From Rickettsia typhi (GTDB lineage Bacteria; Pseudomonadota; Alphaproteobacteria; Rickettsiales; UBA1997), in contig CAMBFC010000001.1 in the NCBI GenBank assembly GCA_945865905.1, positions 174,127 through 238,126 on the forward strand: 64,000 nucleotides of DNA, written 5' to 3'. Shown here piece by piece: positions 4,628 to 56,746 of this stretch (its first letter is position 1; each line of letters starts with the position of its first letter). Both the position numbers and the translations under genes were made by a program. The notes beneath the pieces are model-generated. The model worked only from the letters and a program-made list of their open reading frames with translations, made no database searches and had not been told where the DNA came from.

Positions 4628-4685
4628 TTTGTTGATAAATTGAAGGTTAAAAAAGAACAAATAGAACTATAGCATAGACAACCTA

Positions 4686-5138
4686 TTAGGTGTTAACTTG
4701 ACAGTTAACAGATAAAACAAAAAATTGCCTAACTTCGCTCAACTTTCCTAAAGAATATTTTCGAGTCATAGAAGTTTCACAGACAACACATTTACTTTTT
4801 AGGTGCATAATCTTGTCATTTTCGTTAATTACAATTGCTTGACCTTCTAAAGCCTTTCTAGGCTCTCGACACTTGAAGCAAAACATCTCTTCAAAGCAAC
4901 AATGCTTCTTACCAGCCTTTTGCTTTGCGGTTAAAAAATCTCGCAAATCTTCGCAATGAACCATTATCGGCGTTTTACCATCAATAATTTTCAAGCCATT
5001 TTTTAGCCAATATCGCGCCGTTGTTTCGCAAATATTATACAACTCTCGCACTTCGCTAATGCTGTAGGAAGTATTGCTTTCAATCAGTCTGGGATTGAAT
5101 TTGCGCTTGTAAGATTTTAGCTTTATTTTCTTTGTCAT
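4686..5138 (-). CDS. HTH plus Zn-ribbon (CxxC...CxxC) DNA-binding protein, mobile-element associated
   Basis: YSISEVRELYNICETTARYWLKNGL looks like an HTH. CFKCREPR...CVVCETS is a pair of CxxC motifs. I recognise no specific family. Confidence 0.5.
   Translation of the reverse strand: MTKKIKLKSYKRKFNPRLIESNTSYSISEVRELYNICETTARYWLKNGLKIIDGKTPIMVHCEDLRDFLTAKQKAGKKHCCFEEMFCFKCREPRKALEGQAIVINENDKIMHLKSKCVVCETSMTRKYSLGKLSEVRQFFVLSVNCQVNT
4691..4710. promoter_or_regulatory. Inverted-repeat operator candidate TGTTAAC-N6-GTTAACA upstream of the integrase
   Basis: Perfect 7-bp arms. It lies in the last codons of ORF 4686..5138, about 65-85 nt upstream of the integrase ATG at 4627. Confidence 0.4.
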
Positions 5139-5140
5139 AA

Positions 5141-5356
5141 TTAAAAATTTAAGTTTTTTCTGATTTTATCAAAATCGGTTTCATGCTTTCTGATCCACTC
5201 ATTAAAAGCATCTATTCTATACAAAATCCGCTTTCCTAACTTGGTTCGCGGCGCGCCCTTTCTCCTAGAGGCATCCGTTCTTAAGGTTGGAATGGTTTTG
5301 TTTAGAATTTTTGAGACTTCCTCTTCGGTGTAGTAATCATCTAATGTATTTGACAT
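5141..5356 (-). CDS. Excisionase/AlpA-like small HTH protein
   Basis: 71 aa. YYTEEEVSKILNKTIPTLRTDASRRKGAPRTKLGKRILYRIDAFNEWI matches the AlpA/Xis-type helix-turn-helix layout. Located between the integrase and the regulatory module. Confidence 0.6.
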   Translation of the reverse strand: MSNTLDDYYTEEEVSKILNKTIPTLRTDASRRKGAPRTKLGKRILYRIDAFNEWIRKHETDFDKIRKNLNF

Positions 5357-5366
5357 TTTGTAAAAG

Positions 5367-5386
5367 TGTTTAGTTAATAGTTAACA
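5367..5386. promoter_or_regulatory. Operator candidate TGTTTAG-N6-GTTAACA upstream of the Xis-like gene
   Basis: The right half-site is identical to the other two sites and the left half matches 5/7. It lies 11-30 nt upstream of the start at 5356. Confidence 0.3.
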
Positions 5387-5402
5387 ATAAAAGCAAAAAA
5401 TT

Positions 5403-5987
5403 TTAATAACTCAAATCAAGTAAGCCTAGATATTTCAACCTATAAACCAAAGCCTCTCTTGATACTCTAAAAAATTTCATCATCTCGCCCAATACCTCTT
5501 TGATGGGGCAATTGTGATCAATTTCATTCCATTTTTTTATCATTACCTCTTTAGGCATTAAAATATATGCCGCAAACATATTTGCCTGCATTTCAAGCGC
5601 CTCCGTTCTTGGATCCGTAATATCATGAAATAAAGCCACATTTTCAGCTTTGCGATATTGCGGCCTGTGAAAGAAATAATGCCCACCTTCATGAGCAATC
5701 GTGTAATTGCATCGAGCTTCTTTTGTAAAATCTTCTTCTTCGGTATGATTCAAGCTTTCATCAAGCCAAATCGTTTTACCATCTAAATCTAAAGCCCCCA
5801 AAACTCCTTTAAAATCTTTATTCAAATCTGTAAAAAAGATTTTGAGCCTAAAAATCTTTTCAACAATCAAATCAATTGGCGTTGCGCTATCAAAGTTGTA
5901 AAATCCTCTCTTTTGCGCTTTTTGCAAAACTTCATTCGCCTTTCTTTCAAGAACTTCTGGCGTGCGAAAGCTAACTCCTTTTTCCAT
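5403..5987 (-). CDS. ImmA/IrrE-family zinc metallopeptidase
   Basis: HEGGHYFFH (HExxH) motif. It overlaps the upstream XRE gene by 17 nt, the typical ImmR-ImmA arrangement. Confidence 0.8.
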   Translation of the reverse strand: MEKGVSFRTPEVLERKANEVLQKAQKRGFYNFDSATPIDLIVEKIFRLKIFFTDLNKDFKGVLGALDLDGKTIWLDESLNHTEEEDFTKEARCNYTIAHEGGHYFFHRPQYRKAENVALFHDITDPRTEALEMQANMFAAYILMPKEVMIKKWNEIDHNCPIKEVLGEMMKFFRVSREALVYRLKYLGLLDLSY

Positions 5988-6333
5988 TTTTCTTGGCCTC
6001 CAGATCCTGCATAAATTTTTCTACATCTTCTTTTTTTACTCTACGCAAAAATGCCGCATATAGTTGAGGCTCGCGACCTATAATCTCTCCAAGATCAGAA
6101 GGGATTTTTCCAGCCATCGCCACTAATTTGTCTTCATTAACGCCGAGTATTTTTGCCATTTTTTTAATATTCTCTTCTTTCGGCGCCGCATATTCCCCCA
6201 CCTCCATTTTACTGATATAAGTGGCACTTATTCCGACTTTAGTTGCAAACTCTCTCAAGCCGATATTGAGATCAAGTCTGGTTTTTCTTACGAAATCACC
6301 AAAGTTTGACTTCTTCAATTTTTTATTAGGCAT
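5971..6333 (-). CDS. XRE-family HTH transcriptional regulator (ImmR-like)
   Basis: FGDFVRKTRLDLNIGLREFATKVGISATYISKMEVG is a canonical Cro/C1-type HTH. Confidence 0.8.
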   Translation of the reverse strand: MPNKKLKKSNFGDFVRKTRLDLNIGLREFATKVGISATYISKMEVGEYAAPKEENIKKMAKILGVNEDKLVAMAGKIPSDLGEIIGREPQLYAAFLRRVKKEDVEKFMQDLEAKKNGKRS

Positions 6334-6443
6334 AATAATTATTTATTTTGTTTTAGAGAAACACGCATTGATCCAGTAATCTCAGCAACTCTACCAATTA
6401 CTAAAATGCAGTGTTAAGGTAATACTAAACAGTAAATGTTAAG

Positions 6444-6463
6444 TGTCAACTAGAAAGTTAACA
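6444..6463. promoter_or_regulatory. Operator candidate TGTCAAC-N6-GTTAACA upstream of the XRE gene
   Basis: 6/7 plus 7/7 match to the 4691 site. It lies ~110-130 nt upstream of the XRE start at 6333. The flank AGTTAACAATAAA is shared with the 5379 site. Confidence 0.4.
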
Positions 6464-6574
6464 ATAAATGAAGATGTATTTTGAAGTAAAGCGAAATTAT
6501 GTTAATTAACGGACACCAGACGGACACGAGATTGCAAACTTAAACCTCTAAAACTTACCAGCCCTACAGCTGAT

Positions 6575-6650
6575 TGGTGGACTCGGGCGGATTCGAACCG
6601 CCGACCTACTGATTAAGAGTCAGCTGCTCTACCAACTGAGCTACGAGTCC
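6575..6650 (-). tRNA. tRNA-Lys (anticodon CTT), CCA encoded
   Basis: The reverse complement reads GGACTCGTAGCTCAGTTGGTAGAGCAGCTGACTCTTAATCAGTAGGTCGGCGGTTCGAATCCGCCCGAGTCCACCA. It folds as a cloverleaf with a 7-bp acceptor stem, a GTTCGAATC T-loop and anticodon loop CT-CTT-AA. Confidence 0.95.
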
Positions 6651-11979: not shown

Positions 11980-13686
11980 ATGTCGATAGTTTTTAATGAC
12001 GCTTTAAAACAATCTTCATTAGAAACTTTTGAGAGAGATAAAAAAATATACCAACAGGCAAAAAAAGACCTTCCTGCCGCGCACACATCATTCAAAGCTG
12101 CGGAACGAAATTTTGGACGCCTGATGAATGGTTCAGCAGCAGCATCAGAAGAAGAAATGACCTTATCTTCTTCTCTCGAGACAGATGCACGAGAAAATTT
12201 AAATCGTATAAATCAAATTTTATTAAAATTTGGCACTACCGCTCATGATACTATAAAATTAAAAAATGGCATAGCGCAATATGGCTCAGAGATATTCACA
12301 ATAAGTTTTGCAGATGATCATTGTGTGTCTCAATCTTTTGAGCCATTACAGATGGGAGCATCCTCTGAAGGCTCTCGAGATTTAAATGATCCAGCAATAA
12401 AATCTAGGATTTTTGAAACTTTATTGAATTTGGATCTCTATATAAAAAAACTTTTTGCCGCCCAAGATTCACCTTCAAAACAACCCATTCCATCCGTTTT
12501 TCAATCGCAAACCCCCAAACCTTTGGCGGCAGCATCTTTACCAGCAGCTGCTGCAGCTAAGGCCGCGGTGGCAATTTTGCCAGCAATATCAATTGCAGAG
12601 CAAAAAGTTCTGGATCATCTTCCGGATCTAGCAGAGTTTAAAGTAGTCGCTCCTCCCCAACAATCAACTGGATGGGCAGCGGAACAAGTTGAGAAATGGC
12701 AAAGAGAATGGCGAGAGAAATCTAGGAAGCAAAGGGAAGCGGAAGAGGCTTTAGAATCAGAAAAAACTTCTGGCATTAAAGCAAAAATCACAGAGATTGA
12801 TTCAACCAACTTAACCGAGAAGCATATTTGGAATTTTTCTAGATATATTTATTCTTCTTATTTGCAGCGAAAGAAATCAGTTAACAATCAAAATGGTTAT
12901 TACAATATTTTAAACAGAGGAACCTCGCAAGTTGCAAATGTAGATGATATTCAGATTATCTCAAAAGCCCCAGATGCAGAGCTATTCATTCTTCATTGTA
13001 AAAAAGTTGGAGATATTCAAATTTTTAAGATTAATGCCGCGGCTAAAACAAAAGAAGTTACAGCTTCTTTTTCTTCTGCACAGACAGAACAATTTTATGA
13101 TTTTATTCGCAATGTTGCAAAAATAGAAGGATTGTCTGATGAGAATTTGAATAAGGTTTTGTTGGAAGGTAAGTTGGGTAAGGAAACTGTGAAAACACCA
13201 AGGCCAATGATGGCAGCGGCATCGCGCCCAGCGGGATTTATGGCAGCAAGATCTTCTGTTGGCGAAGTTGCTCCTTCTGCCGCGACTGCGAGGAATTCAT
13301 TTGCGGCCGCTAAAACACCTTTGCCAAGAAGACTAGAGCCATTGATGGGGATGGTTTCAAAAAAATTGGCTCCAATTGCGCCTATTAATAATCCGGCTTT
13401 GTCTTCTGTTGCCGTTGCGACTAGCGCTCCTTCAGTTGGTTTTGCTGTTGCGGCAGCGGCTTCTGCTTCTGTTGCCACTACAGCAACTGCACAAATCGCT
13501 CAACCTCCTAAAAAGCCACAACCTCCGGCAGCAGCGCGCCCACCAAAATCACGTCCAGTAGTGGCATTTGGTGGAATAGTTAGAGATCGAAAAAAATCGG
13601 CAAAAGAAGCGGGGGAAAGACCCGCTGTAGCAACTGCCAAACCATCGGCAGCGGCAGCCGCAGCGACAACACAACAAACTAAATAG
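11980..13686 (+). CDS. Orphan Ala/Pro-rich protein (568 aa), candidate secreted or effector protein
   Basis: Long ORF with low-complexity Ala/Pro/Ser tracts (AASLPAAAAAKAAVAIL, PPKKPQPPAAARPPKSRP). The locally GC-rich coding creates antisense shadow ORFs. No family recognised. Confidence 0.6.
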   Translation: MSIVFNDALKQSSLETFERDKKIYQQAKKDLPAAHTSFKAAERNFGRLMNGSAAASEEEMTLSSSLETDARENLNRINQILLKFGTTAHDTIKLKNGIAQYGSEIFTISFADDHCVSQSFEPLQMGASSEGSRDLNDPAIKSRIFETLLNLDLYIKKLFAAQDSPSKQPIPSVFQSQTPKPLAAASLPAAAAAKAAVAILPAISIAEQKVLDHLPDLAEFKVVAPPQQSTGWAAEQVEKWQREWREKSRKQREAEEALESEKTSGIKAKITEIDSTNLTEKHIWNFSRYIYSSYLQRKKSVNNQNGYYNILNRGTSQVANVDDIQIISKAPDAELFILHCKKVGDIQIFKINAAAKTKEVTASFSSAQTEQFYDFIRNVAKIEGLSDENLNKVLLEGKLGKETVKTPRPMMAAASRPAGFMAARSSVGEVAPSAATARNSFAAAKTPLPRRLEPLMGMVSKKLAPIAPINNPALSSVAVATSAPSVGFAVAAAASASVATTATAQIAQPPKKPQPPAAARPPKSRPVVAFGGIVRDRKKSAKEAGERPAVATAKPSAAAAAATTQQTK

Positions 13687-18903: not shown

Positions 18904-20283
18904 ATGAAATTTCGCACAAAAACAATTGAAAATTTAGTTAGTGGCGCAAGAGCTAAGCCTCTCAAAAAAACCCTCGGAGCGCTTGATTTAGTTTTTCTCG
19001 GAATTGGCTGCACAATCGGCACCGGAATTTTCGTTTTAACAGGAATTGCCGCCGCTCAATACGCGGGTCCAGCCATTGCTATTTCATATTTAATCTCAGG
19101 AGTTGCCTGCATTTTTGCTGGCCTTGCTTATTCTGAATTAGCGGCTGCGATTCCCGTTGCTGGCGGCACTTACACTTATACTTACGCAATTCTCGGCGAA
19201 TTTTCTGCTTGGATGGTCGCTTGCGGAATCTCGCTTTGCTACACTATTGGCGGTGCAACCGTTGCTGCGGGCTGGTCTGGCTATTTTGTTGGCATTATGG
19301 AAGCGGGCGGATATCATATTCCTGAAGCGCTCACAAAAATCCCCTCTGAAGGCGGAATCGTCAATCTTCCTGCGGTTTGCATCACATTATTTATTGGATT
19401 TATTTTAATGCGCGGCACCAAAGAAAGTATCGCGTTAAATCGTTTTCTTGTTGTGATTAAACTTATTGCGATCGCTCTCTTTATTTTTATCGCAGTTCCT
19501 CACATTAAAGTTGAAAACTGGACTAATGATTTTATGCCATTTGGACTCACTGGAGTTTTCACTGGTGCTGCCGCAATATTTTTTGCCTATACCGGTTTTG
19601 ATGCAGTTGCAACTGCGGCCGAAGAAACCAAAAACCCCAATCGCGATTTGCCAATTGGTATCATCGGATCATTATTAGTATGCATTGTGCTTTACATTGC
19701 AGCATCTCTTGCACTTACCGGAATCACTAATTATTCTGAACTCAACAACGCTGAACCAATGGCTTTTGCACTGCGCCAAAATGGCAGCAATGTTGGTGGT
19801 GCAATCGTTGGAGCTGGTGCTCTTGCTGGAATGGTAGCAGTTTTATTAGTATTTATGTATGGCCAATCACGAATATTTTTTGTGATGGCGCGCGATGGAT
19901 TGCTGCCAAAATTCTTCGGCAAAATGCATAAAAAGTTTGAAACTCCCTACATTAGCTGCATCGTAGTAACTATTGCCGTCGCTTTGTTCACTGGCTTTGT
20001 TCCAATCAAAACAATCGCCAGCATTACTAGCCTTGGTGCTTTGTTTGCATTTATCGTTACTTCGTTTGGCGTAATGGTTTTGCGCGTTAAAAGACCAAAA
20101 CTTGATAGACCTTTTCACTGCCCAGCAGTTTTTGTTTTAGCCCCATTAGCAATTCTTATTTGCGGATACTTGCTTTATTCATTATTTATGGTCACCATTC
20201 AAGCCTCATTAATCTGGTTAGTCTGTAGCATATTAGGATATTTTGTTTATGCTTACCGCAAAAGTCCCCTAGGGCGTGATTAA
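18904..20283 (+). CDS. APC-superfamily amino acid permease, tandem paralog 1
   Basis: 459 aa, polytopic, with GIGCTIGTGIFVLTG near the N-terminus. Collinear with the next two genes. Confidence 0.85.
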   Translation: MKFRTKTIENLVSGARAKPLKKTLGALDLVFLGIGCTIGTGIFVLTGIAAAQYAGPAIAISYLISGVACIFAGLAYSELAAAIPVAGGTYTYTYAILGEFSAWMVACGISLCYTIGGATVAAGWSGYFVGIMEAGGYHIPEALTKIPSEGGIVNLPAVCITLFIGFILMRGTKESIALNRFLVVIKLIAIALFIFIAVPHIKVENWTNDFMPFGLTGVFTGAAAIFFAYTGFDAVATAAEETKNPNRDLPIGIIGSLLVCIVLYIAASLALTGITNYSELNNAEPMAFALRQNGSNVGGAIVGAGALAGMVAVLLVFMYGQSRIFFVMARDGLLPKFFGKMHKKFETPYISCIVVTIAVALFTGFVPIKTIASITSLGALFAFIVTSFGVMVLRVKRPKLDRPFHCPAVFVLAPLAILICGYLLYSLFMVTIQASLIWLVCSILGYFVYAYRKSPLGRD

Positions 20284-20308
20284 AAATTTAAAGTTACTTT
20301 TTTAAAAC

Positions 20309-21688
20309 ATGAAATTTCGCGTAAAAACAATTGAAAGCCTGATTAGCGGCGCAAAAGCTAAACCACTTAAAAAAACTCTGGGCGCAATAGATTTAATATT
20401 TTTAGGAATTGGGTGCACAGTTGGCACAGGGATTTTTGTTTTAACAGGCATTACCGCCGCACAATATGCTGGCCCCGCAATTGCACTTTCATATTTAATT
20501 TCTGGTATTGCCTGCATTTTTGCTAGCCTTGCTTATTCTGAATTAGCAGCAGCAATACCGGTTGCTGGTGGCGCTTATACCTACACTTACGCTATTCTTG
20601 GAGAGTTTGCCGCTTGGATGGTTGCTTGCGGAATCTCGCTTTGCTATACTATTGGTGGCGCAACCGTTGCAGCGGGCTGGGCAGGCTATTTTGTTGGCAT
20701 CTTAAAAGCGGCGGGCTATCACATTCCCGATGCGCTAACAAAAATTCCTGCTGAAGGCGGAATCATCAATCTTCCCGCTGTTGGCATCACATTATTAATT
20801 GGTCTATTTTTAATTCGCGGCACCAAAGAAAGCATTGTTCTTAATCGCGTTCTGGTTGTTTTAAAACTGGCGATTATTTTTATTTTTATTTTTCTCGCCG
20901 TTCCCGATATTAAAATCGAAAACTGGACCAATGATTTTATGCCATTTGGTATCACTGGAGTTTTCACTGGCGCCGCCGCAATTTTCATCGCTTATATTGG
21001 ATTTGAAGCCGTTGCAACAGCTGCTGAAGAAACTAAAAATCCCAATCGTGATTTGCCAATTGGCATCATTGGATCACTTATTGTTTGCATCGTACTTTAT
21101 ATTGCAGTTGCACTTTCTCTCACCGGAATCACTAACTATTCTGAACTAAACAATGCCGAACCAATGGCTTTTGCACTTCGTCAAAATGGTAGCAATATTG
21201 GCGGCGCTTTGATAGGAGCTGGCGCCCTTACTGGCATGGTGGCAGTTTTATTGGTTTTAATGTATAGTCAATCACGAATATTTTTTGTAATGTCACGCGA
21301 TGGCTTGTTACCAAAATTTTTTGGAAAAACACACAAAAAGTTCGAAACTCCTTACATAAGCTGTATCATTGTGACTCTTGCTGTTGCTTTATTTACAGGA
21401 TTTGTTCCGATTCAAACAATTGCCAGCATCACTAGTTTAGGAATTTTATTCGCCTTCATGGTTACTGCATTTGGTGTGATGGTTTTGCGCATTAAAAGAC
21501 CAAAACTTGATAGACCATTTCGCTGCCCTGCGGTTTTTGTTTTGGCCCCATTAGCAATTTTGGTTTGCGGCTATTTGCTTTATTCTCTATTAATTGTAAC
21601 CATGCAAGAATCTTTGATTTGGCTGACTTGCAGTGTGATTGGATATTTTCTTTATGCTTATAAAAAAAGCCCTTTAGGTCAAAAATAA
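20309..21688 (+). CDS. APC-superfamily amino acid permease, tandem paralog 2
   Basis: 459 aa. Most positions are identical to paralog 1 by eye. Confidence 0.85.
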   Translation: MKFRVKTIESLISGAKAKPLKKTLGAIDLIFLGIGCTVGTGIFVLTGITAAQYAGPAIALSYLISGIACIFASLAYSELAAAIPVAGGAYTYTYAILGEFAAWMVACGISLCYTIGGATVAAGWAGYFVGILKAAGYHIPDALTKIPAEGGIINLPAVGITLLIGLFLIRGTKESIVLNRVLVVLKLAIIFIFIFLAVPDIKIENWTNDFMPFGITGVFTGAAAIFIAYIGFEAVATAAEETKNPNRDLPIGIIGSLIVCIVLYIAVALSLTGITNYSELNNAEPMAFALRQNGSNIGGALIGAGALTGMVAVLLVLMYSQSRIFFVMSRDGLLPKFFGKTHKKFETPYISCIIVTLAVALFTGFVPIQTIASITSLGILFAFMVTAFGVMVLRIKRPKLDRPFRCPAVFVLAPLAILVCGYLLYSLLIVTMQESLIWLTCSVIGYFLYAYKKSPLGQK

Positions 21689-21748
21689 AAACTATGTAAA
21701 TTGAAAGTTCAACTTGCAATTTACATAAAATTTAAATCATAAATAGTT

Positions 21749-23137
21749 ATGAAATTTCGCGTAAAAACAATCGAGCATTTAATCGCTGATGCTAAAGCTA
21801 AGCCTCTTAAAAAAACCCTAACTACTCTCGATTTAGTTTTTCTTGGAGTTGGCTGCACAATCGGTACCGGAATTTTTGTTTTAACAGGAATTGCCGCCGC
21901 TCAATATGCTGGTCCCGCAATTGCAATTTCATATCTAATTTCAGGAATTGCCTGCATTTTTGCTGGCCTTGCTTATTCTGAACTTGCTGCAACGATTCCT
22001 GTGGCAGGCGGCTCTTATACCTTTAACTATGCTATTCTTGGTGAATTTGCTGCGTGGATGGCATCTTGCGGGCTTTTTCTTGGCTACGCAATCGCCGCTG
22101 CAACCGTTGCCGCGGGCTGGTCAGGCTATTTTGTTGGCATAGTCAATTCTGCTGGATATCACATCCCAGAAATGCTCACAAAAATTCCGGCTGAAGGCGG
22201 GCTCGTCAACCTTCCTGCCGTATTAATCGCTCTATTAATTGGCGTTATTTTAATGCGCGGCACCAGAGAAAGCATCATTCTAAACCGCGTTCTTGTTATT
22301 ATAAAACTTGTCGCAATTTTTCTCTTTATTTTCATCGCCGCTCCTCACATTAAAGTTGAAAACTGGACTGATGATTTTATGCCTTTCGGTCTCAACGGAA
22401 TTTTCACCGGCGCCGCGGCAATATTTTTTGCCTATAATGGATTTGATGCCGTTGCTACCGCAGCAGAAGAAACCAAAACTCCTAATCGCAGCCTGCCAAT
22501 CGGCATTATCGGTTCACTTTTAGTGTGCATCGTGCTTTATACCGCGGTTGCTTTGGCACTTACCGGAATCACTAACTATTCTGAACTCAACAACGCCGAA
22601 CCAATGGCTTTTGCACTCCGCCAAAATGGCAGCAATATTGGCAGTGCCTTGATAGGAACTGGCGCTCTTACTGGAATGATGGCAGTTTTGTTGGTATTGA
22701 TGTATGGTCAATCACGAGTATTTTTTGTAATGTCACGCGATGGATTATTGCCAAAATTCTTCAGCAAAATGCACAAAAAATATGAAACACCTTTTTTGAG
22801 CTGTCTTGTAGTAACTGTTCTTGTTTGTGCTTTTGGTGGATTGGCACCGATCAAAACAATCGCCAGCCTAACTAGTATTGGTATTTTGTTTGCTTTAATT
22901 TTATGCGTGATTTCAGTTATGGTTCTTCGGTTTACGCGCCCTAAACTTGAAAGACCATTCCGCTGCCCCGCACTTTTTGTTATCGCACCTTTGGCAATTT
23001 TAATTTGCAGCTACTTGATTTACGCCCTTATGGGAGAGGTGTTTGTGCCGTTTTTGATTTGGTTGTTTTGTGGTGTGGCGGGGTATTTTCTTTATGGATA
23101 TAGAAAAAGCCCTTTGAATGAGAGGAATAAAAAGTAG
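21749..23137 (+). CDS. APC-superfamily amino acid permease, tandem paralog 3
   Basis: 462 aa. Same architecture, somewhat more diverged, especially in the last ~100 aa. Confidence 0.85.
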   Translation: MKFRVKTIEHLIADAKAKPLKKTLTTLDLVFLGVGCTIGTGIFVLTGIAAAQYAGPAIAISYLISGIACIFAGLAYSELAATIPVAGGSYTFNYAILGEFAAWMASCGLFLGYAIAAATVAAGWSGYFVGIVNSAGYHIPEMLTKIPAEGGLVNLPAVLIALLIGVILMRGTRESIILNRVLVIIKLVAIFLFIFIAAPHIKVENWTDDFMPFGLNGIFTGAAAIFFAYNGFDAVATAAEETKTPNRSLPIGIIGSLLVCIVLYTAVALALTGITNYSELNNAEPMAFALRQNGSNIGSALIGTGALTGMMAVLLVLMYGQSRVFFVMSRDGLLPKFFSKMHKKYETPFLSCLVVTVLVCAFGGLAPIKTIASLTSIGILFALILCVISVMVLRFTRPKLERPFRCPALFVIAPLAILICSYLIYALMGEVFVPFLIWLFCGVAGYFLYGYRKSPLNERNKK

Positions 23138-24202: not shown

Positions 24203-24206
24203 TAGT

Positions 24207-24376
24207 GTTAAAAAAGTTAAATGAGAATTTGTGAAGGGGGCGAGACGATGGTCCTCTGCTGCTCAGACACCCTTTTTATTTGATTTAAAGCAAGCGTAGC
24301 TTGCAATAAAAATGGAACTCGCCTCAGAGGACCATCGTCTCGCCCCCTTCCCAAATTCTCATTTAACTTTTTTGAC
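24207..24376 (-). repeat. Nested palindromic element, copy A (66-nt core 24259..24324 with 52-bp copy-specific arms)
   Basis: The arms GTTAAAAAAGTTAAATGAGAATTTGTGAAGGGGGCGAGACGATGGTCCTCTG and its reverse complement differ at 2 positions. The core is shared with copies B-E. It lies 5 nt downstream of the acs stop. Confidence 0.85.
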
Positions 24377-24381
24377 ACCTA

Positions 24382-29000: not shown

Positions 29001-29094
29001 GTTGTATTGGGTTGTTGAAAACTTTATGCTTTCAAAATATTGTTGCAACCAGTTATTTAAATCACAAGGAATTAGGAAGAGACAAAAAAAACTT

Positions 29095-29242
29095 AAAGAA
29101 AGGCTTAAGAGCTTTACTGGCAAGGCTCTGAGCCGAGTTCCATTTTTATTGCAGGCTACGCTTGCTTTAAATCAAATAAAAAGGGTGTCTGAGCAGCAGA
29201 GCCTTGCCAGTCAAGCTCTTCAGCCGAGGGCGAGATCTATAA
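29095..29242 (+). repeat. Nested palindromic element, copy B (core 29131..29196)
   Basis: The core matches the reverse complement of the copy A core at 64/66 positions. Middle arms are TTACTGGCAAGGCTCTG and CAGAGCCTTGCCAGTCAA. Outer conserved ends are GAAAGGCTTAAGAGCT and AGCTCTTCAGCCGAGGGCGAGATCTATAA. Confidence 0.85.
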
Positions 29243-31096: not shown

Positions 31097-34000
31097 TTAT
31101 TTTCTTTCGGTTGTTCTGTCTGTTTGATTTAGTGGTAATCCCGCAGGATCTTTGAGGTTTTGAGGGGGAGGAGCCTCTTCTATATCTGAAAGGGTTGGAC
31201 TGCTAGTGCTCCAGCCTGGCGCTGGAGAGCGGGGGCCGTCTATATTTGGATCGTAGTTTTGACCGTCATTGTCAAACCCATCAAGAGCGGCTTGAAATCT
31301 TGCGCGCGAATCAAGACTATTAGATAACGGGTCTACCACCGAACCTGAACTACTACTTCTAGCCATTGCTGCTCCTGCGGGTAGATCATCAACGCGCGAC
31401 TCTGCCACCACTACTTGACCATCTCGATCTCGCTGCATCATATCTGTTTGAGGTGCTGCCTCCAAGGGGCCACCCATCGGCCCTAATTCTACATCGGCAG
31501 TCTCTACTCGATACACTGTTTCTGGAAACACTCTATTTCTATCAGGACGATTTCTTAAATATTTTATGGTAACGCCAGCTGCAACAAGAGCAGCTGCTAA
31601 TGAGACGGTTATAGTAGGCACCAATACAGATGCTTCGGCATTGCCTCCGTCGTTATTAGGTGGACTTTTTGATGTGCTAGAAATTGGATCTTCCGTTGTA
31701 ATAGGATCGGATTGCGCTTTAGTAGTTGGAGTATTTGAAGCTGTTGGAGTAGTTGGAGCCGTTGGAGCCGTTGCAACAACAGTGCTTGCGCTTCTGGTAT
31801 ATGTTGTAACAGAATAGGTTGCGGTGGCGGTATCATAAGAATCTGGGCTCGATTGAGAAATCGAACTCGATTGAGAAGTTGGTCGCAAAGTTGCGGCGGT
31901 CGAAGTGTCGGGCTGCGTCGCCAAAGTGCTTGCAACGGTCGCTGGATCTGATTGCGAATCTGACTTTGAGGTTGAAAAAGTTGAAGAATCTGCGGTTGGA
32001 GATGAAGCTGAAGATAAACTAGAAGTGGTATCAGAAACTGAATTTGAAATTGAACTTGATTGAGAAGTTGGCTGCAAAGTTGCGGCGGCCGAAGTATCGG
32101 GCTGCGTTACCGAAGTGCTTGCAACACTCGCCGGAACTTCTGTAGTTACAACCTGCAACTGCGATATAAGATTGGCAACAAACTCTTGATTTTCTCCATA
32201 AAATGTAATATTGGTGTTTCCCGGAAAAATCGCTTTAACCGAAGCAACACCATCAACATCAACCATTTCAGTAACAACCGATTGCGCATTGATCGGCTGT
32301 GGAAAAAAAAGCTTCGCATTGCCGCCCTGATTAACCATTGTATAGCTTGCATTTGCCGCAAAAACAATATTGGCGCCCTGAACTGAAGGCGGAACTATTA
32401 TTATAGTAGAATGACCAGCAATTGCTTGATCGCCACTAAAAGAATTTGCAACATAGGTTTCATTATTCGCAATAGAATAAGCTCTTATATTTTCGATATC
32501 GGTTCTTATTCCATTAGGATTAGAAAAAGTTGCGGCGGTGATAACATTTCCGTTAGCAGATATTTCGTTAAAACCAACGACAACCTGACTATTTGCTGGC
32601 GTCTCTAAGGCGGGATGATCGGCCAATGGGCTTGATGTGATTGATAAATCTGTGGCATTTACTAGATATCCATCCTGCGGTACTCCACCTTTGCTAAAGG
32701 CAGCAAAAACATTATTACCTTCTGGCACAACGCCATTCACTGCTATTGTGCGACGAACTCTGGAAAAAACTGAGCTTCGAATGCCAGCATTAATTTCTCT
32801 AAATCCAGCAATAATTTTACCATCTTGAGAAACAGCCATAACCACCCCAGCGGTTTCTGCTGTGCCAATATCATAAACAACAGCCGCCTCTACATTGCCA
32901 TCTGGCAATGGTCTGGTAGAAAAATCAGTAATAGTGAAGGTTCCTGCCGATATTGATTCTGTGTTATTTGTTGGTATTGCAGTATCTGTTGAGCCAACGG
33001 GGCCAGTATTTGCAATCGAAAAAAGCACATTATCTTGAGCCGCTAAATGAACGCCACTCGCGGTATAAAATTGTTGCACTAATTGTGGCAGACCATCAGC
33101 GCCAGTTACTTTGGCAATAGTGTAAAAATTGCCACTGCTTGCTTTGTAAAGCTGCATATTTCCATCATAACCAACCGCATCAGGTTGCGCTGTGGCACTG
33201 TGAACATATGGCGCATTGGTAACAAATGCTGGCGTTGCAGGAAAAATTCCTAGAACATTCGCCACCGAATTTGATGCAGCTGGATCAGGGCTTAGGCCCT
33301 CAATTGCGATACTACCGCCATTTAATGCCCCGCTACCAAAAAGCGTCACACTATCTGCGTTTAGCACTAGATTGATTGCTGGCGATAACAAGCTGAAGGT
33401 ATTATTGCTTGCGGCACTCTGATAGGCTGCACCACTCAACGGTACTCCGTTAACAGATAACACGACCTGCGCTACACCAGAGGGAATTATTAAAGTAGAT
33501 TCACCTACTATACCATTTGCAGTGGCATTAACTTGAAAATTTACTGCAAAATTAGGATCGGTTAATCCGCTATTTTCAGCTATCGCGGTTAGATTAACAT
33601 TTTCAGGCATTTGTGCGTTCACGCTAATGATGTTGCCATTAACTTGAGCGAGCAATAATGGCACATCTTTTCTTGTGCGCTCTTTTTTATTCGCTGCTTG
33701 ACTAACAGCAACAGGTTGTGGCGTTGCGAGTTCTATCTTAGTTTTTGGGGCTTCTACAGGGGCTTCTACAAAATATGAGCTAGCTTGGTTTATTGCACCT
33801 TGCACAGCTTTTCTTATTTCACTTGCAACATTAGCTGCTATTTCTAACCAAGAACGCTGATTTGCGGCTTCTTCAGCAGCTTTTTTAGCGGCTTCTTTAG
33901 CGGCTACACGCTCAGCTTGAGCGGCTTTTTTTCCAACTCTTTGCTCTGCCAATCTTTCTTCTCTGGATTTTTCATGTTCGAATGGTTCTTCTCTTGGTTG

Positions 34001-34165
34001 CCCATGCCTATTAAGACCACCACCAAATTGAGTTAATGGCCCCAAACCATGAGGGACATTAACAGGAAAGTTCTGCACTCTCGTAGGTTGTTGCGGCAAA
34101 ACTGCTGGCGGAGCATATGAAGGGGGGGCCGTTACACCACGAGCAACAGGAAAATTATCGGTCAT
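31097..34165 (-). CDS. Large orphan protein, paralog 1: ~500-aa conserved domain, Ser/Thr-rich stalk, single TM helix, Pro-rich tail
   Basis: Collinear similarity to ORF 34279..36585 (LVQQFYTASG vs LVQRFFTATG; IIIVPPSVQGANIVFAANASYTMVNQGG vs IIIIPPSVVGAVITFVANAAANITYTLVNQGG). TM segment VLVPTITVSLAAALVAAGVTI followed by KYLRNRPDRNR. The likely start is MTDNFPV at 34165 (track ORF extends to 34231). Confidence 0.7.
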   Translation of the reverse strand: MTDNFPVARGVTAPPSYAPPAVLPQQPTRVQNFPVNVPHGLGPLTQFGGGLNRHGQPREEPFEHEKSREERLAEQRVGKKAAQAERVAAKEAAKKAAEEAANQRSWLEIAANVASEIRKAVQGAINQASSYFVEAPVEAPKTKIELATPQPVAVSQAANKKERTRKDVPLLLAQVNGNIISVNAQMPENVNLTAIAENSGLTDPNFAVNFQVNATANGIVGESTLIIPSGVAQVVLSVNGVPLSGAAYQSAASNNTFSLLSPAINLVLNADSVTLFGSGALNGGSIAIEGLSPDPAASNSVANVLGIFPATPAFVTNAPYVHSATAQPDAVGYDGNMQLYKASSGNFYTIAKVTGADGLPQLVQQFYTASGVHLAAQDNVLFSIANTGPVGSTDTAIPTNNTESISAGTFTITDFSTRPLPDGNVEAAVVYDIGTAETAGVVMAVSQDGKIIAGFREINAGIRSSVFSRVRRTIAVNGVVPEGNNVFAAFSKGGVPQDGYLVNATDLSITSSPLADHPALETPANSQVVVGFNEISANGNVITAATFSNPNGIRTDIENIRAYSIANNETYVANSFSGDQAIAGHSTIIIVPPSVQGANIVFAANASYTMVNQGGNAKLFFPQPINAQSVVTEMVDVDGVASVKAIFPGNTNITFYGENQEFVANLISQLQVVTTEVPASVASTSVTQPDTSAAATLQPTSQSSSISNSVSDTTSSLSSASSPTADSSTFSTSKSDSQSDPATVASTLATQPDTSTAATLRPTSQSSSISQSSPDSYDTATATYSVTTYTRSASTVVATAPTAPTTPTASNTPTTKAQSDPITTEDPISSTSKSPPNNDGGNAEASVLVPTITVSLAAALVAAGVTIKYLRNRPDRNRVFPETVYRVETADVELGPMGGPLEAAPQTDMMQRDRDGQVVVAESRVDDLPAGAAMARSSSSGSVVDPLSNSLDSRARFQAALDGFDNDGQNYDPNIDGPRSPAPGWSTSSPTLSDIEEAPPPQNLKDPAGLPLNQTDRTTERK

Positions 34166-34278
34166 AAATTTATTACAAAAAATTATAAAAAATACATTTG
34201 AAACAGTTTCAAATGACAAATTAAAAATCAATAAACAAGATAGCTCAATGATTTAGGCTTTATATCAAGTTTATTTGA

Positions 34279-36552
34279 TTAAACTCGTGACTCGTGATTA
34301 CGCTCATTACTTGCCACTAATTTATTCGCTGCTGGTACTCGCAATGGTGGCAATTCGTTCCTTGGCTGTTGCAAAACAGCTTGAGGTGGTGGCAATGCCG
34401 CGGCATCTTGTTGATCTGGCTGCGGCTCTGGAGCAAAAGCGTTAGTGCGAGACCTAGGCGGTTGTAGCCTATCTTGCACAGGAGACAATTCGACAGCTTG
34501 TTGATCTGGCTGCGGCTCTGGAGCAACAGCGTTAGTGCGAGACCTAAATTTATTGTAAAGCCACGCCCCACCCATAATAGCGAGAACACCGCCAATAACA
34601 CCACCTATAACATATGGATTGACAGATGAGGAAGGATTCGGACTTGGACCTGCAATAGTAGTAGCGGCAGGCGCCAGAGTTGTGTTAGGCAGAGCCACAA
34701 TTGTGGGCAATGCTGTTAATTCACGAGTTGCGCTTTCAGTAGTATCGGGGCGCTGCGTAGAAGTGCTTTGACTGGTCTCGATAGAAGGATCAGCCGAAAC
34801 CCCTCCTTTTGAGGTACTTGGATTTTGCGTAGAAGATGCTATCGAGCTGCAATCGTTAAGCTGCGCCACAAGATCAGTGACTATATCCACACCTTGCCCA
34901 ACAAAGATAATATTAGCGCCGCCAAAATGAACCACTGATGACGGAGCGCCATCAATATTAACCGCATCAATGATTGGATTTTGAGTATCAATCCCAGAAA
35001 AACAATAAGAAGCCCCGCCACCCTGATTAACCAAAGTATAGGTAATATTAGCAGCAGCATTTGCAACAAAAGTGATTACGGCCCCAACAACAGAAGGAGG
35101 AATGATAATAATTGGCAAATCATCACTCGCCTCATTTGCAACAACATATTCTTCGCCATTTTCAATAACATGAACTTCACAACCCGCAATTTCTTCTAGC
35201 GCAGTAGTGTTAGAAAATTGCCCAATAGTTACTCTTCCTCCAGCAGAACTAGCAGAACTATAGCCATCAATAGCGATCTGGTTATTTTCTACAGGCAATA
35301 ATACTTGATGATCTGCGACAAGGCTTTGCTCTATTAAACCCGCTGTTGCATTATAAAATATTCCTTCCGCGGGCGAATTTCCGCGTCGGCTAAAAGCCGC
35401 AAAAAAATTATGGCTATCTGGATCTACCGCATTAGCTTCTGCGCCCACTAGAGCAATTTTGCGCTGCAAGAAATTAAAAGCGGTTGATGTAGCAGGAAAA
35501 CTAACATCTCGCGCGCCAGCAGTCATGTTTCCCATTTGATCAATAACCATAGAAATTCCACCAGTTTCTACAATGCCGCGATTGTAAGTTGCGGCAATAC
35601 CTATTGCGCCATTAGATAATTGTCGCGCAGCAAAATTAGTGATCGCAAATCCTGCAAAATCAGTATTATTCATTGGGATATCTTGCTCTGCTACTCCAGT
35701 TGGATTAGGTCCTGAATTGACATAAGTAATAATATCGCGCTGCAGCTCTGGCATTGGCGCACCAGTTGCGGTAAAAAATCTTTGCACTAATCGCGGCGCA
35801 TCGCCACTATTATCTATAGCAAAGGTAGAAAAAGTGCCATCTAGGTTGCTAAATAGCTGCGCATTTGTATCAAAATTTTGTGATTGATCTATCGTGAATT
35901 GTCTTTTATAAAGCACATCAACAGTATAATCTTGAATTGCTGGCAAAACTCCTAAACAATTTACAATAGAATTGGGGCTTGCGGGAATAGAATCCAAACC
36001 AAAAATTCTGATAGAACTATTATCAATCTGCGCACTACCGCTATTAGCAAATATTGCACCGCCATCACTATTTAACAGCAAAGTAGTTGGTGAATTAGTA
36101 AAAGGAAAACTGCCACTATCTCTATCATCTGAACAAACAACGCCACTTAGCGAAACTCCATTAACAGTTAAAGCAAGAGGCGAGCCATTATTAGGACATG
36201 TTAAATTAAGCTTGCCAACAATGCCTTGGCTGCCATCTTGATTAAAATAGTCAAAGTTAAAAAAACATATTTTTTCTTTTTCTACACCAAAAGCCTCAGC
36301 TATTTGACCTAAATCAAAAGAATTTTCAAGAATTGTTTCGTTGCGATAAAATCTGATATTAAAAACATCACTACCATCATTATTTGGCGCGACTAAAGAA
36401 CCACCTTCAATGTTAACTCTTTCGCCATTAAGAGAAATAAACAGATTATCATATCTACTCAAATCTGTTCTGCGCACCGCAGTAATTGGTGATCTAATCA
36501 AGCGAACAAATGCAGCCGCAGCACGACTGATATATCCAGAAGGTATATCCAT
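34279..36552 (-). CDS. Large orphan protein, paralog 2: same architecture
   Basis: Same conserved domain, a Ser/Thr/Pro stalk, TM segment VIGGVIGGVLAIMGGAWLY followed by NKFRSR, and a duplicated 30-aa tail repeat. The likely start is MDIPSGY (track ORF extends to 36585). Confidence 0.7.
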   Translation of the reverse strand: MDIPSGYISRAAAAFVRLIRSPITAVRRTDLSRYDNLFISLNGERVNIEGGSLVAPNNDGSDVFNIRFYRNETILENSFDLGQIAEAFGVEKEKICFFNFDYFNQDGSQGIVGKLNLTCPNNGSPLALTVNGVSLSGVVCSDDRDSGSFPFTNSPTTLLLNSDGGAIFANSGSAQIDNSSIRIFGLDSIPASPNSIVNCLGVLPAIQDYTVDVLYKRQFTIDQSQNFDTNAQLFSNLDGTFSTFAIDNSGDAPRLVQRFFTATGAPMPELQRDIITYVNSGPNPTGVAEQDIPMNNTDFAGFAITNFAARQLSNGAIGIAATYNRGIVETGGISMVIDQMGNMTAGARDVSFPATSTAFNFLQRKIALVGAEANAVDPDSHNFFAAFSRRGNSPAEGIFYNATAGLIEQSLVADHQVLLPVENNQIAIDGYSSASSAGGRVTIGQFSNTTALEEIAGCEVHVIENGEEYVVANEASDDLPIIIIPPSVVGAVITFVANAAANITYTLVNQGGGASYCFSGIDTQNPIIDAVNIDGAPSSVVHFGGANIIFVGQGVDIVTDLVAQLNDCSSIASSTQNPSTSKGGVSADPSIETSQSTSTQRPDTTESATRELTALPTIVALPNTTLAPAATTIAGPSPNPSSSVNPYVIGGVIGGVLAIMGGAWLYNKFRSRTNAVAPEPQPDQQAVELSPVQDRLQPPRSRTNAFAPEPQPDQQDAAALPPPQAVLQQPRNELPPLRVPAANKLVASNERNHESRV

Positions 36553-36770
36553 AAAATATTTAATAAGTATATTAATATGACTCACTATCTTCTACAACAA
36601 ACTAAGCTTTTAATCAAGATTAATTTGACCTGATTTTTTTACAGAATTTTATCGAATTAGTTTATAAAAATTGTCTTATTCTAATTTAATTGCAAAATTT
36701 TGTTTAATTTAACAAAATTAAATCTAATCTATCGATATCGAAAATTCTAAATAACCAAACTATTTTGCAA

Positions 36771-54115: not shown

Positions 54116-54143
54116 AAAAATAAGATGCAAATATATAAAATTT

Positions 54144-54291
54144 AAAAAATAAAGAGAAAGCCTAGGTTGGAGAAAGAGGGTCTGAGGCGAGTTCTGCAAA
54201 TATCGCGAGCTACGCTCGCTTTAAATCAGATAGTTGCGGTGTCTGAGCAGCAAACCCTCTTTCTCCAACCTAGGCTTTCTCTTTATTTTTT
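54144..54291 (+). repeat. Nested palindromic element, copy C (core 54185..54250), divergent with compensated stems
   Basis: 38-bp arms AAAAAATAAAGAGAAAGCCTAGGTTGGAGAAAGAGGGT and its reverse complement. The conserved blocks AGGCGAGTTC, TTTAAATCA and TGTCTGAGCAG are retained. The inner stems are changed but still complementary. The right arm overlaps the rppH 3' end. Confidence 0.85.
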
Positions 54292-54794
54292 AAAAACTCA
54301 GCAAAATCATTAATAACATCTTCATAAAGTTCTCGTTTAAACGAAACAATATGACTAACAATTTCTGCTAACGAAACCCATTTCCACTCCGAAAATTCAG
54401 GATCTTCAGTGGCAATATTAATCGCAGAATCATCACCAACAAACTCAATTAAATACCAGCGTTGTTTTTGCCCCAAATATTTGCCACCCCAAAATTTTTT
54501 CTGCAATTTATAAGGCAAATTATAATAATAGTGGCCGAGGCTTTTGCTGATTACTTTGACATGATTTGAACTGATGCCAGTTTCTTCTTTTAGCTCGCGC
54601 AACATTGCATCATCTTCTTGCTCATTAACATCGATCCCACCTTGCGGCATCTGCCATGCATCCGAATTATTATCAATTCTTTTTCCAACAAAAATTTGTT
54701 TTTGCGCGTTAATTATCATGATTCCAACGCCGCTGCGATAGAGATAATCTGGCTTGGTACTGTTTTGATCTTTGATAGAATCGCTTATTTGCAT
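54270..54794 (-). CDS. rppH: RNA pyrophosphohydrolase (Nudix)
   Basis: Nudix box GGIDVNEQEDDAMLRELKEETG and RppH/NudH-like flanks (WQMPQGG, QKQRWYL). Confidence 0.9.
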   Translation of the reverse strand: MQISDSIKDQNSTKPDYLYRSGVGIMIINAQKQIFVGKRIDNNSDAWQMPQGGIDVNEQEDDAMLRELKEETGISSNHVKVISKSLGHYYYNLPYKLQKKFWGGKYLGQKQRWYLIEFVGDDSAINIATEDPEFSEWKWVSLAEIVSHIVSFKRELYEDVINDFAEFLKNKEKA

Positions 54795-54912
54795 TTTTTA
54801 ATTTTTGACTGTCTGAAATTTTAAATTATAATCTACAAGGATAAATTATTTAATTCAAACTTATAGCTCAATTTAGGCAAAATATTTGTGAACAAGATCT
54901 AAATTATAAAAA

Positions 54913-56319: not shown

Positions 56320-56474
56320 ATTATAGATCTCGTCCGCGGCTTGAGAGCTAGTTAGGTAAGGCTCTGCTGCTCAGACACCCTTTTTATTTGAATTAAAGCA
56401 AGCGTAGCTTGCAATAAAAATGGAACTCGCCTCAGCAGAACATCTTCAGCCAATCTCCTCGGCCTTTCTTGAAG
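56320..56474 (-). repeat. Nested palindromic element, copy D (core 56367..56432)
   Basis: The core matches copy A at 65/66 positions. The outer end TTATAGATCTCGTCC starts 1-2 nt after the thrC stop. The middle arms are degenerate. Confidence 0.8.
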
Positions 56475-56560: not shown

Positions 56561-56703
56561 AGAAAGGCTTTAGAGCTTGCTGGTGATGCTTGAATGCGAG
56601 TTCCATTTTTATTGCAAGCTACTCTTGCTTTATTCAAATAAAAAGGGTGTCTGAGCAGGCGAGTATCACCAGCAAGCTCTAAAGCCGAGGACGAGATCTA
56701 TAA
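56561..56703 (+). repeat. Nested palindromic element, copy E (core ~56594..56658)
   Basis: Core with a few substitutions and a 1-nt deletion. Arms are GCTTGCTGGTGAT and ATCACCAGCAAGC. The outer end is AGCTCTAAAGCCGAGGACGAGATCTATAA. Inverted relative to copy D. Confidence 0.8.
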
Positions 56704-56746
56704 ATTTAAGCCACAAAGTAAAAATCATGAATTAAGAATCACAAAA

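Follow-up and report, generated by a model that had tools for sequence, protein, structure and literature searches.

A strand-asymmetric hairpin repeat with a conserved core and variable, compensated arms in uncultured freshwater alphaproteobacteria

The stretch of DNA analysed here (64,000 nucleotides, referred to as the window) contains five copies, A to E, of a hairpin repeat core, where none is expected by chance. Every unit of this repeat is a single long hairpin; elements measure ~110 to 270 bp and are ~50% G+C in a window that is ~39% G+C. What is new is a polarity opposite to that of REPINs, the hairpin-forming doublets of repetitive extragenic palindromic (REP) sequences: the centre is conserved, the stem varies and the ends exist as three alternative modules. 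Our favoured reading, to which we give a probability of about 0.45, is that the repeat is a non-autonomous element resembling REPs, bacterial interspersed mosaic elements (BIMEs) and Rickettsia palindromic elements (RPEs), and that it is recognized and propagated as a folded single strand. Its high copy number, narrow host range, strain turnover and random orientation, with no promoter excess, coding capacity or associated gene seen, argue for a selfish intergenic repeat and not an RNA gene, while its invariant asymmetric tip and strand-specific wobble bias argue that something reads one folded strand. A sequence-only reading of the window had left the choice between a selfish element, similar to an RPE or a miniature inverted-repeat transposable element (MITE), and a structured RNA/DNA module. 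The present results blend the two, as selfish mobility is supported by copies that are dispersed, polymorphic and decaying, and strand-specific folding is supported by covariation.

Core, fold and strand asymmetry

A search with the full 66-nt core found copy A with no mismatches, copy B with two and copy D with one, in agreement with the hand counts of the sequence-only reading (64/66 for A against B, 65/66 for A against D). A degenerate pattern anchored in the two best-conserved boxes, CGAGTTC-N35-50-GGTGTCTGAGCAG, matches the window once in each copy (Table 1) and nowhere else, and had no match in 100 shuffles; a covariance model made from 16 copies likewise returned the five known copies and no sixth, so that the five positions originally proposed stand.

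Covariation statistics were obtained from a model-guided alignment of 49 copies. In this alignment 98.3% of the stem cells pair, a value that falls to 34-42% if the 3' partners are shifted along by 1-3 columns, and changes on both sides occur in 25 of the 40 pairs. The observed covariation score was reached by none of 500 shuffles (RNAalifold was run as well), and the check by covariance model and covariation proposed with the sequence-only reading therefore yields a very strong signal. The architecture first described, which is not a simple palindrome and comprises a 6-bp apical hairpin, a stem of ~11 bp and a one-sided bulge, is also seen in the alignment. The apical hairpin of the tip has the form GCAAGC-UAC-GCUUGC, in which 9 copies have G-C in place of an A-U pair, and is accompanied by a semi-conserved one-sided A/U bulge of ~9 nt (UUUAAAUCA). 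The stem of ~11 bp, P2, exists as several fully compensated alleles (CCATTTTTATT/AATAAAAAGGG, CTGCAACCATC/GATGGTTGCGG, CTGCGCTTCATC/GATGAGCGCGG and others), and the P2 and apical stems of copy C carry compensatory changes relative to those of A, B, D and E. P2 also has frame-shifting indels, and its variation is compensatory at the level of nucleotides, not of codons; a peptide encoded by the core or the arms was rejected because the frames differ between alleles. An IHF site spanning the bulge and P2 was rejected as well, as it fits one P2 allele alone.

The core contains two invariant boxes, CGAGTTC and GGTGTCTGAG. The sequence-only reading took the flanks of the core to be conserved and unpaired, which does not hold, as they are mostly paired. 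The boxes form C:G, A:U and G:C pairs together with a U·G that never varies and two small internal loops (1x2 and 2x3); the pair G22:C87 covaries to C:G and A:U, and a block below the boxes with AGG opposite CAG (A·G, G·A, G:C) in most copies is exchanged as a helix elsewhere for AAC/GGG, ATA/TAT (fully Watson-Crick), GAG/CGC or ATG/CAG. Judged from these exchanges, the supposed flanks form a continuous helix with tandem A·G/G·A pairs, the 1x2 loop and the 2x3 loop. The argument that conserved unpaired blocks are the mark of a functional RNA is weakened to the same extent, since the blocks are largely helical. Below the tip, the sequence of the stem varies while its complementarity is kept. 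In two orthologous copies (L017:3860-3930 and L034:1800-1870; loci are denoted by L numbers), GTCTGAGCAG and the whole 3' arm are tandemly duplicated; the duplication begins exactly at the invariant 3' box, and its second copy has diverged in L034.

The mispairs that remain in the stems are distributed unequally between the two strands. The distal arms contain 24 G·T and T·G mispairs versus 2 A·C and C·A mispairs, and the model alignment contains 111 wobble pairs versus 9 of the A·C type, or 26 versus 9 without the two conserved wobble columns, U27·G80 (49/49 copies) and U30·G77 (36/49). Some wobbles are inherited, such as a recurrent G·T at stem position 9, so that these counts represent fewer independent events, and the asymmetry remains. 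The sense strand is more stable as RNA than its complement in 47 of 47 copies, by a mean of 8.3 kcal/mol, of which ~7 kcal/mol comes from the common core. Because the wobble bias is also present in copies that are antisense to both neighbouring genes, it is a property of the element and not of host transcription. We infer that one particular strand folds, namely the strand on which the core is written here ('sense'). The wobble asymmetry cannot come from a symmetric DNA cruciform, whereas folded single-stranded DNA (ssDNA) or RNA can account for it.

The arms had been described as copy-specific; instead, they fall into three classes with conserved termini, T1, T2 and T3, which are built on one common core (Table 1) and have the hairpin feet AAGAAAGG, AGATAAATC and TTGAAAAAGATG, respectively. 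The T1 tail is similar to the core's 5' box (GAGGGCGAGATC versus GAGGCGAGTTC) and differs from the T2 tail by transitions. A-runs and T-runs close the stems of T3, and T1 is followed by CCTTTCTT-N-TTTTTT on the antisense strand. The variable part is the middle of each arm. Arms are ~20 to ~95 bp long and mostly perfect, and the distal arms of 19 of the 49 copies are unlike those of any other copy. The T1 and T3 end motifs are almost confined to the neighbourhood of a core (10/11, 8/8 and 4/5 occurrences), and no coreless T1 or T3 hairpin was found in ~330 kb; the arms are therefore part of the unit, not older hairpins into which a mobile core has moved. When distal arms were searched as guides against other loci, just two matches of 17-18 nt were found outside the elements. 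Two motifs were considered as general genomic signals and dismissed: AGATCT occurs at ~2x its expected frequency yet mostly inside genes, and TTCAACMMCCC is not enriched. The palindrome of L042 was considered as a fold-back assembly artefact and this was rejected, as the palindrome ends after ~95 bp per arm.

A second hairpin repeat, 'family 3', was seen at L016:4285-4370, L023:3447-3531, L031:394-474 and L057:1492-1576, with no copy in the window. It has the form GATAAATTATA, a variable compensated stem, CATTTTATTTCGC-GCGMAAGCACA-GCTACATAAAATG..., and the end TATAATTTATC. It often precedes T2: at three loci a T2 copy with the same orientation follows 70-110 nt on its 3' side. The T2 tail, read as its reverse complement, is found as the 5' flank of family 3, CTTTCACGATAAAT. 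Another nested palindrome, unrelated to either family (L052:2547-2743), has arms of >50 bp with AGATCT and the core TAGGTCAGCGTATCCCCGCAGGGGATATAACGTGACCTA.

Distribution, genomic setting and turnover

The window is derived from a 125-kb metagenomic contig (ERZ27280309) whose genes form an ordinary aerobic alphaproteobacterial housekeeping set, and two more copies just beyond the window on the same contig bring the count to 7 copies in 82 kb. A scan of 185,579 species genomes returned 27 loci, of which 11 are true and all belong to one metagenome-assembled genome (MAG) from Lake Baikal, 'Rickettsiales bacterium Baikal-deep-G64', with 14 copies (13 by pattern and 1 by model). The other 16 loci (L001, L002, L004, L006, L007, L009-L014, L019, L021, L022, L024, L026, L027) are chance matches in GC-rich DNA, and L049 was likewise set aside as such. 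No true match was found in any other of the 185,579 genomes, and the core pattern is without a match in any Rickettsia genome among these species representatives. A scan of Joint Genome Institute (JGI) metagenomes gave 27 true loci, all in freshwater samples, with 34 model hits; two contig pairs are identical. The JGI freshwater contigs have ~32 copies and, together with the Baikal MAG, ~46 are counted beyond the window contig. The wider search proposed with the sequence-only reading has thus placed the core in the Baikal MAG and in JGI freshwater contigs, and nowhere else in the genomes scanned. Viral contigs, plasmids and phages gave no match. Rfam, searched over the whole window at the gathering threshold, reported 3 tRNAs and nothing else, and Rfam 15 at E-values up to 10 over positions 54100-56800 reported spurious matches to microRNA-precursor hairpins alone, so the Rfam check returned no matching family. 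Judged from the collections scanned, the repeat is confined to a small group of uncultured freshwater alphaproteobacteria and is previously undescribed. Four of the loci (L018, L038, L040, L044) are 93-99% identical to the window contig, and other orthologous pairs between the Baikal MAG and JGI contigs are ~10% different. Within Baikal-deep-G64, contig SHWK01000008 (L018) is ~98% identical to the window contig and contig SHWK01000038 (L003) is 69% identical to the ggt gene of the window; going by these identities, two related populations may have been combined in the bin.

All copies are intergenic or at most touch a stop codon, as the sequence-only reading had proposed for the five in the window. 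Orientation could be scored for 38 copies whose neighbours on both sides are visible. Co-directional genes flank 26 of them (11 sense, 15 antisense), convergent genes 11 and divergent genes 1, so that a gene 3' end is faced by 37 of the 38; copy F, which lies beyond the window, adds a second copy between divergent genes. Adjacent copies are always arranged head-to-head with their 5' sides facing (seven cases), and head-to-head pairs lie between convergent genes. Since the partners belong to different classes, the pair is not a composite element. The open reading frames (ORFs) between paired copies appear by eye to be housekeeping genes (apparently purM, tig, aroA, tuf, folD and similar), and an all-against-all clustering of 240 flanking ORFs revealed no recurrent neighbour gene. 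No excess of promoters was detected upstream on the sense strand, where the best sigma-70-like score was 7.9/12 versus 7.6/12 on the antisense strand (p = 0.08); the T1 tail, ...GATCTATAAT, was rejected as a dedicated promoter, being without a -35 partner.

Comparison of closely related contigs shows that copies are gained, lost and replaced. The locus L040 is 96-98% identical to window positions 53890-57353 and is without copies C and D. In L040 the NUDIX and DNA polymerase III chi genes that flank copy C are just 6 nt apart, and the last ~15 NUDIX codons are unusually diverged between it and the window contig. At the site of copy E, L040 also has a copy, with a different P2 allele and different arms. 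The locus L044 contains an orthologue of copy B and an extra T3 copy upstream, and exactly at the junction of this extra copy the window has a lone example of the motif that follows the T3 3' arm (Table 1). This motif is an empty target site or else what remained after the hairpin was deleted. T3 may have a target motif, e.g. TTTT^CAACAACCC. Elsewhere, an orthologous site is occupied by T3 and T1 copies in L008 and L032, and the position of the copy at L035:4070-4177 is taken in its orthologue by the unrelated hairpin L052:2547-2743. A head-to-head pair has given rise to a deletion chimera (L025 versus L045), and one arm has lost 21 nt (L003 versus L050). Window positions 60380-60426 were considered as an empty site orthologous to the L003/L050 copy and this was withdrawn, as the neighbouring gene is different and synteny is not conserved.

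The boxes are invariant between populations that are ~10% apart in their flanks. The clearest record of arm evolution comes from copy G of the window contig and its counterpart L038, whose flanks differ by 1-2%, cores by 0% and arms by 18% each; no arm substitution lacks its mirror image in the opposite arm, and the same holds for a 1-nt and a 2-nt indel. Where the flanks of a pair are 10-15% diverged, arm divergence is close to that of the flanks and pairing is still perfect, on which ground hypermutation of the arms was rejected; the excess in very close pairs therefore reflects episodic replacement and not continuous diversification. We conclude that the complementarity of the stem is actively maintained. 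Besides any selection on folding, the mirrored indels suggest that one arm is copied from the other or that recombination replaces the entire hairpin. Part of the covariation therefore arises at the DNA level, and covariation alone is no proof of RNA function.

Known systems and competing explanations

The family works like REPs and REPINs, RPEs and hairpin MITEs, yet departs from the defining features of each. With the BIMEs of REP/REPIN systems and their REP-associated tyrosine transposases (RAYTs) it shares high-copy, extragenic, lineage-specific and non-coding hairpins at gene ends, compensatory stem changes, mosaics with other motifs, and deletion and recombination between copies. A RAYT is a single-copy Y1 transposase gene that is flanked by repeats, and none is present in 82 kb of the window contig or among ~240 ORFs near other copies. 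A REPIN unit consists of two inverted conserved REPs and a less conserved spacer (PMC3116915). No such inverted doublet is seen here: REPINs have conserved REPs at the hairpin base and a variable centre, whereas this family has an invariant, asymmetric centre and a variable stem. A REP itself is a short imperfect palindrome preceded by GTAG (PMC8266576), whereas there is no GTAG at the foot of the hairpins described here and the sole GTAG lies inside the apical hairpin on the antisense strand. RPEs are similar in being ~100-150 bp palindromic repeats of AT-rich small alphaproteobacterial genomes that can extend or alter ORFs, as copy C does with 6 codons of the NUDIX gene. However, RPEs frequently insert in frame within genes and encode a conserved peptide (PMC10969869), whereas the present copies are intergenic with compensation at the nucleotide level, and their core pattern has no match in Rickettsia genomes; membership among RPEs was judged by this pattern in genomes, without direct comparison to an RPE consensus.

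Hairpin MITEs (Correia, ERIC, Coxiella QMITE2, pneumococcal SPRITE) are also short, non-coding, intergenic repeats at gene 3' ends that give stable transcript hairpins, and they are known to influence termination and processing by RNase III or RNase E (PMC10969869). They differ in having conserved terminal inverted repeats, and usually target-site duplications and a parent insertion sequence (IS), whereas the ends here are asymmetric (AAGAAAGG... versus ...GATCTATAA) and the inverted arms vary between copies. No transposase of a parent IS is found in or near the copies, nor any match to the repeat in plasmids, phages or viral contigs. An ordinary MITE with terminal inverted repeats and a target-site duplication does not fit the element, whose ends are asymmetric and beside which no duplication was seen. 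Integron attC sites are likewise folded single-strand hairpins in which structure is kept and stem sequence varies, and the choice of strand is made there by extrahelical bases and unpaired spacers; attC sites, however, conserve the base (RYYYAAC...GTTRRRY), vary the tip and form cassette arrays beside intI, whereas no attC boxes are present at the ends of these copies, which are scattered among housekeeping genes. The ends of IS200/IS605 elements and of their gene-less derivatives (PATEs) resemble the family in their asymmetry, their lack of terminal inverted repeats and their imperfect hairpins recognized on one strand; they also lack target duplications, of which none was seen here. Theirs are two short subterminal hairpins with a 4-5-nt target/cleavage motif and a lagging-strand bias; here there is one continuous long hairpin, the window copies show no strand bias of this kind, and neither tnpA nor tnpB was seen.

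If the repeat is a mobile element that is read as a folded strand, the asymmetric tip would be a strand-specific recognition module for a protein supplied in trans. The likeliest candidate is an enzyme acting on folded ssDNA, comparable to the HUH/Y1 transposases of REPs and IS200/IS605 and to integron integrases, which would copy or move the element. Bulges and mismatches in hairpins give TnpAREP, IS200/IS605 TnpA, IntI and relaxases their strand-specific recognition of ssDNA (PMC8266576), and compensatory changes are known in REPIN spacers (PMC3116915). The complementarity of the arms would be kept partly by selection on foldability and partly by arm-from-arm DNA copying or recombinational replacement of the hairpin, either of which would explain the mirrored indels. 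Copies inserted at gene ends would be co-transcribed passengers, and any terminator-like or RNA-stability effects would be by-products, not the cause of core conservation. A number of observations weigh against this reading. No Y1/HUH transposase, reverse transcriptase or DDE transposase is encoded in 82 kb of the window contig or in the ~240 ORFs near other copies, which is also the outcome of the search for a cognate transposase suggested with the sequence-only reading. Among the 49 copies, no two non-orthologous ones have near-identical long arms, so there is no direct sign of recent copy-and-paste. No target-site duplication, a feature the sequence-only reading had suggested looking for, is visible at the empty site of copy C in L040, where the adjacent coding sequence has diverged; the L044 contig holds only one junction of its T3 site, and no clean pair of empty and filled junctions was obtained. 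The window copies are divided 2 versus 3 between strands under a uniform sign of GC skew, giving no bias for the lagging-strand template. The core is intact in copies with decayed arms (D, L003), which would fit a function of the core in place, and tolerance of G·T suits RNA as well as ssDNA.

The last two points are shared by an explanation that we consider doubtful, in which the copies form an expressed family of structured RNAs whose sense transcripts use the stem as a processing stalk (e.g. for RNase III) and the tip as the mature RNA (scaffold, sponge or ribozyme). It would accommodate the strong covariation, the G·U tolerance of one strand with its conserved columns U27·G80 and U30·G77, the greater stability of the sense strand in 47/47 copies, the boxes that do not change between populations ~10% apart in flanks, and an apical hairpin followed by UUUAAAU that has the look of a small terminator on the sense strand. 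Several features are difficult to reconcile with it: promoters are not enriched upstream on the sense strand, the 5' flanks of T1, T2 and T3 are completely different, orientation relative to genes is random with copies 0-5 nt from stop codons, and mirrored indels are not expected from selection on RNA. Very high copy number, narrow distribution, and presence or absence in near-identical strains are typical of a selfish repeat. A dedicated RNA gene in particular, the RNA side of the sequence-only alternative, is not supported, given the random orientation, the lack of a sense-strand promoter signal and the lack of an Rfam match. We regard as unlikely that the copies are host cis-elements, that is, BIME- or SPRITE-like mosaics acting as terminators, insulators, stabilizers of mRNA 3' ends or protein-binding sites, spread by recombination and selected at their loci. 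Such elements would be expected where 37/38 copies face a gene 3' end and head-to-head pairs separate convergent genes, and would fit the A-/T-run closure of T3, the CCTTTCTT-N-TTTTTT of T1, the occupation of one orthologous gene end by different hairpin families (L035 versus L052; L008 versus L032), and the mosaics with accessory hairpins (an AT hairpin 5' of T3, the 'family 3' hairpin 5' of T2). However, an invariant asymmetric 66-nt tip is unnecessary for termination, the U-tract of T1 is found on the antisense strand, opposite to the sense strand that the wobble bias singles out, copy C has the look of a tolerated insertion, not a needed terminator, in the 6-nt junction of an apparent operon with an altered protein C-terminus, and copies are dispensable in strains that are 96-98% identical.

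It is very unlikely that only the core (~80-100 nt) is mobile and inserts into the tips of pre-existing hairpins, in the manner of IS1397 and REP loops. Such insertion would account for copy-specific arms, including the 19/49 distal arms unlike any other, and for copies at gene ends, where terminators occur; other coreless hairpin families exist in these genomes, and the distal arm of copy C resembles the native gene end of the empty site at 14/17 positions. Nonetheless, the T1 and T3 end motifs are essentially bound to the core with no coreless hairpins in ~330 kb, the empty site of copy C is without a hairpin, non-orthologous arms are related by descent within a class, and stems of 30-95 bp are far beyond ordinary terminators. 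Finally, the invariant tip would, though this is quite unlikely, be the recognition or active module of an undescribed mobility or RNA system. One version would transmit one arm and the core as a single strand and make the second arm by fold-back priming, which would explain the perfectly mirrored substitutions and indels as well as the excess of G·T mispairs; in another, an RNase III-type stalk would carry a protein-binding or self-cleaving RNA with a new fold.

Copies in the window, their surroundings and significance

The five window copies, together with the end classes to which they are assigned, are listed in Table 1. Inverted-repeat detection gives copy B arms of 29 nt with 93% complementarity and copy E arms of 32 nt with 88% complementarity, G·T pairs included. 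The arm lengths of the sequence-only reading are thereby extended, from 52 to 54 nt for A (96%), from 38 perfect to 44 nt for C (98%) and from 13 to 32 nt for E. Of the outer ends that it took to be common to B, D and E, the 5' one is shared by B and E, whereas the 5' end of D has just GAAAGGC in common with them. Copy D retains its core, 3' arm and tail, and its 5' arm (GAAAGGCCGAGGAGATT...) no longer pairs with the 3' arm, so that the hairpin is lost.

Table 1. Repeat copies, related motifs and end classes; coordinates are window positions.
Feature	Coordinates	Strand	Degenerate pattern match	Description
Copy A, T3-like	24205..24378	(-)	24259-24321(-)	54-bp arms, 96% complementarity; 119.6 bits with covariance model
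66-nt core of copy A	24259..24324	(-)		5' box AGGCGAGTTC, variable P2 stem, apical hairpin GCAAGC-TAC-GCTTGC, 9-nt bulge TTTAAATCA, 3' box GGTGTCTGAGCAG
Lone TTCAACAACCC / TTTTCAACAACCC (motif following T3 3' arm)	29009..29019	(-)		exactly at junction of the extra T3 copy of L044
Copy B, class T1	29095..29242	(+)	29134-29196(+)	5' end AAGAAAGGCTTAAGAGCT, 29-bp arms, 3' tail CCGAGGGCGAGATCTATAA; core 29131-29196
Copy C, T3-like	54141..54294	(+)	54188-54250(+)	44-bp arms, 98% complementarity; core 54185-54250
Copy D, decayed or chimeric T1	56320..56474	(-)	56367-56429(-)	core 56367-56432; 78.9 bits, partial model
Copy E, T1, junction variant CTTGAATG/GCAGGCGAG	56561..56703	(+)	56597-56658(+)	core 56594-56658
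T1 ends				5' AAGAAAGGCTKAAGAGCT; 3' AGCTCTTMAGCC, then unpaired tail GAGGRCGAGATCTATAA; B, D, E and 11 other copies
T2 ends				5' CGTTAMAGATAAATC; 3' GATTTATCGYGAAAGCAAGATCTAAAAAC
T3 ends				5' small A/T hairpin, then TTGAAAAAGATG; 3' CATCTTTTTCAA, then CAACMMCCC; A and C T3-like

Copy A is co-oriented with acs, and its hairpin edge at 24378 is 3 nt from the acs stop codon (24382), not the 5 nt reported before. Copy B is antisense to both flanking genes. Copy C lies between the NUDIX gene (54270-54794, (-)) and the chi gene (53675-54116, (-)) and provides the final 6 codons and stop of the former, changing ...FLK* to ...FLKNKEKA*. Copy D begins directly after the thrC stop codon and forms a head-to-head pair with copy E, which lies 44 nt upstream of ccmF. 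In other assemblies (Logan ERR3719165 and ERR3719154; ENA ERZ27280278), contigs that belong to the same organism break at or near the apex of a copy, namely L029 at window position 24300 (copy A), L064 at ~56387 (copy D) and L066/L067 inside copy E. Short-read assemblies of this lineage are therefore fragmented by the repeats.

A genomic island occupies positions 1-6650 of the window and the upstream sequence (L068:5034-15810), adjoins a tRNA gene (6578-6650), contains no repeat copy, and encodes two tyrosine recombinases, a type I/IIG restriction-modification set (N6_Mtase/Eco57I, Methylase_S), a helix-turn-helix protein with a Peptidase_M78 protein, and a SLFN/AlbA_2 ATPase. Three tandem paralogous amino-acid permease genes (459, 459 and 462 aa; ~70-79% DNA identity) are located at 18904-23137, and large ORFs of 1044, 768, 568 and 583 aa without a recorded Pfam hit are located at 31097-36585 (-), 11980-13686 (+) and 50265-52016 (+).

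Bacteria commonly carry hairpin repeats (REP, REPIN, RPE, ERIC and Correia among them), and how most of these move and persist is poorly understood; to our knowledge, the mechanism by which RPEs are mobilized is still unknown. The present family is an unusually clean case, as its conserved asymmetric tip must be read by something, its stems record the upkeep of complementarity, mirrored indels included, and its strand asymmetry can be measured independently of host transcription. For annotators of these lineages, the repeats are of practical concern because they break metagenome assemblies at the apex and can alter gene ends. A partner protein, if found in complete genomes of the freshwater clade, could reveal a new form of folded-single-strand recognition.

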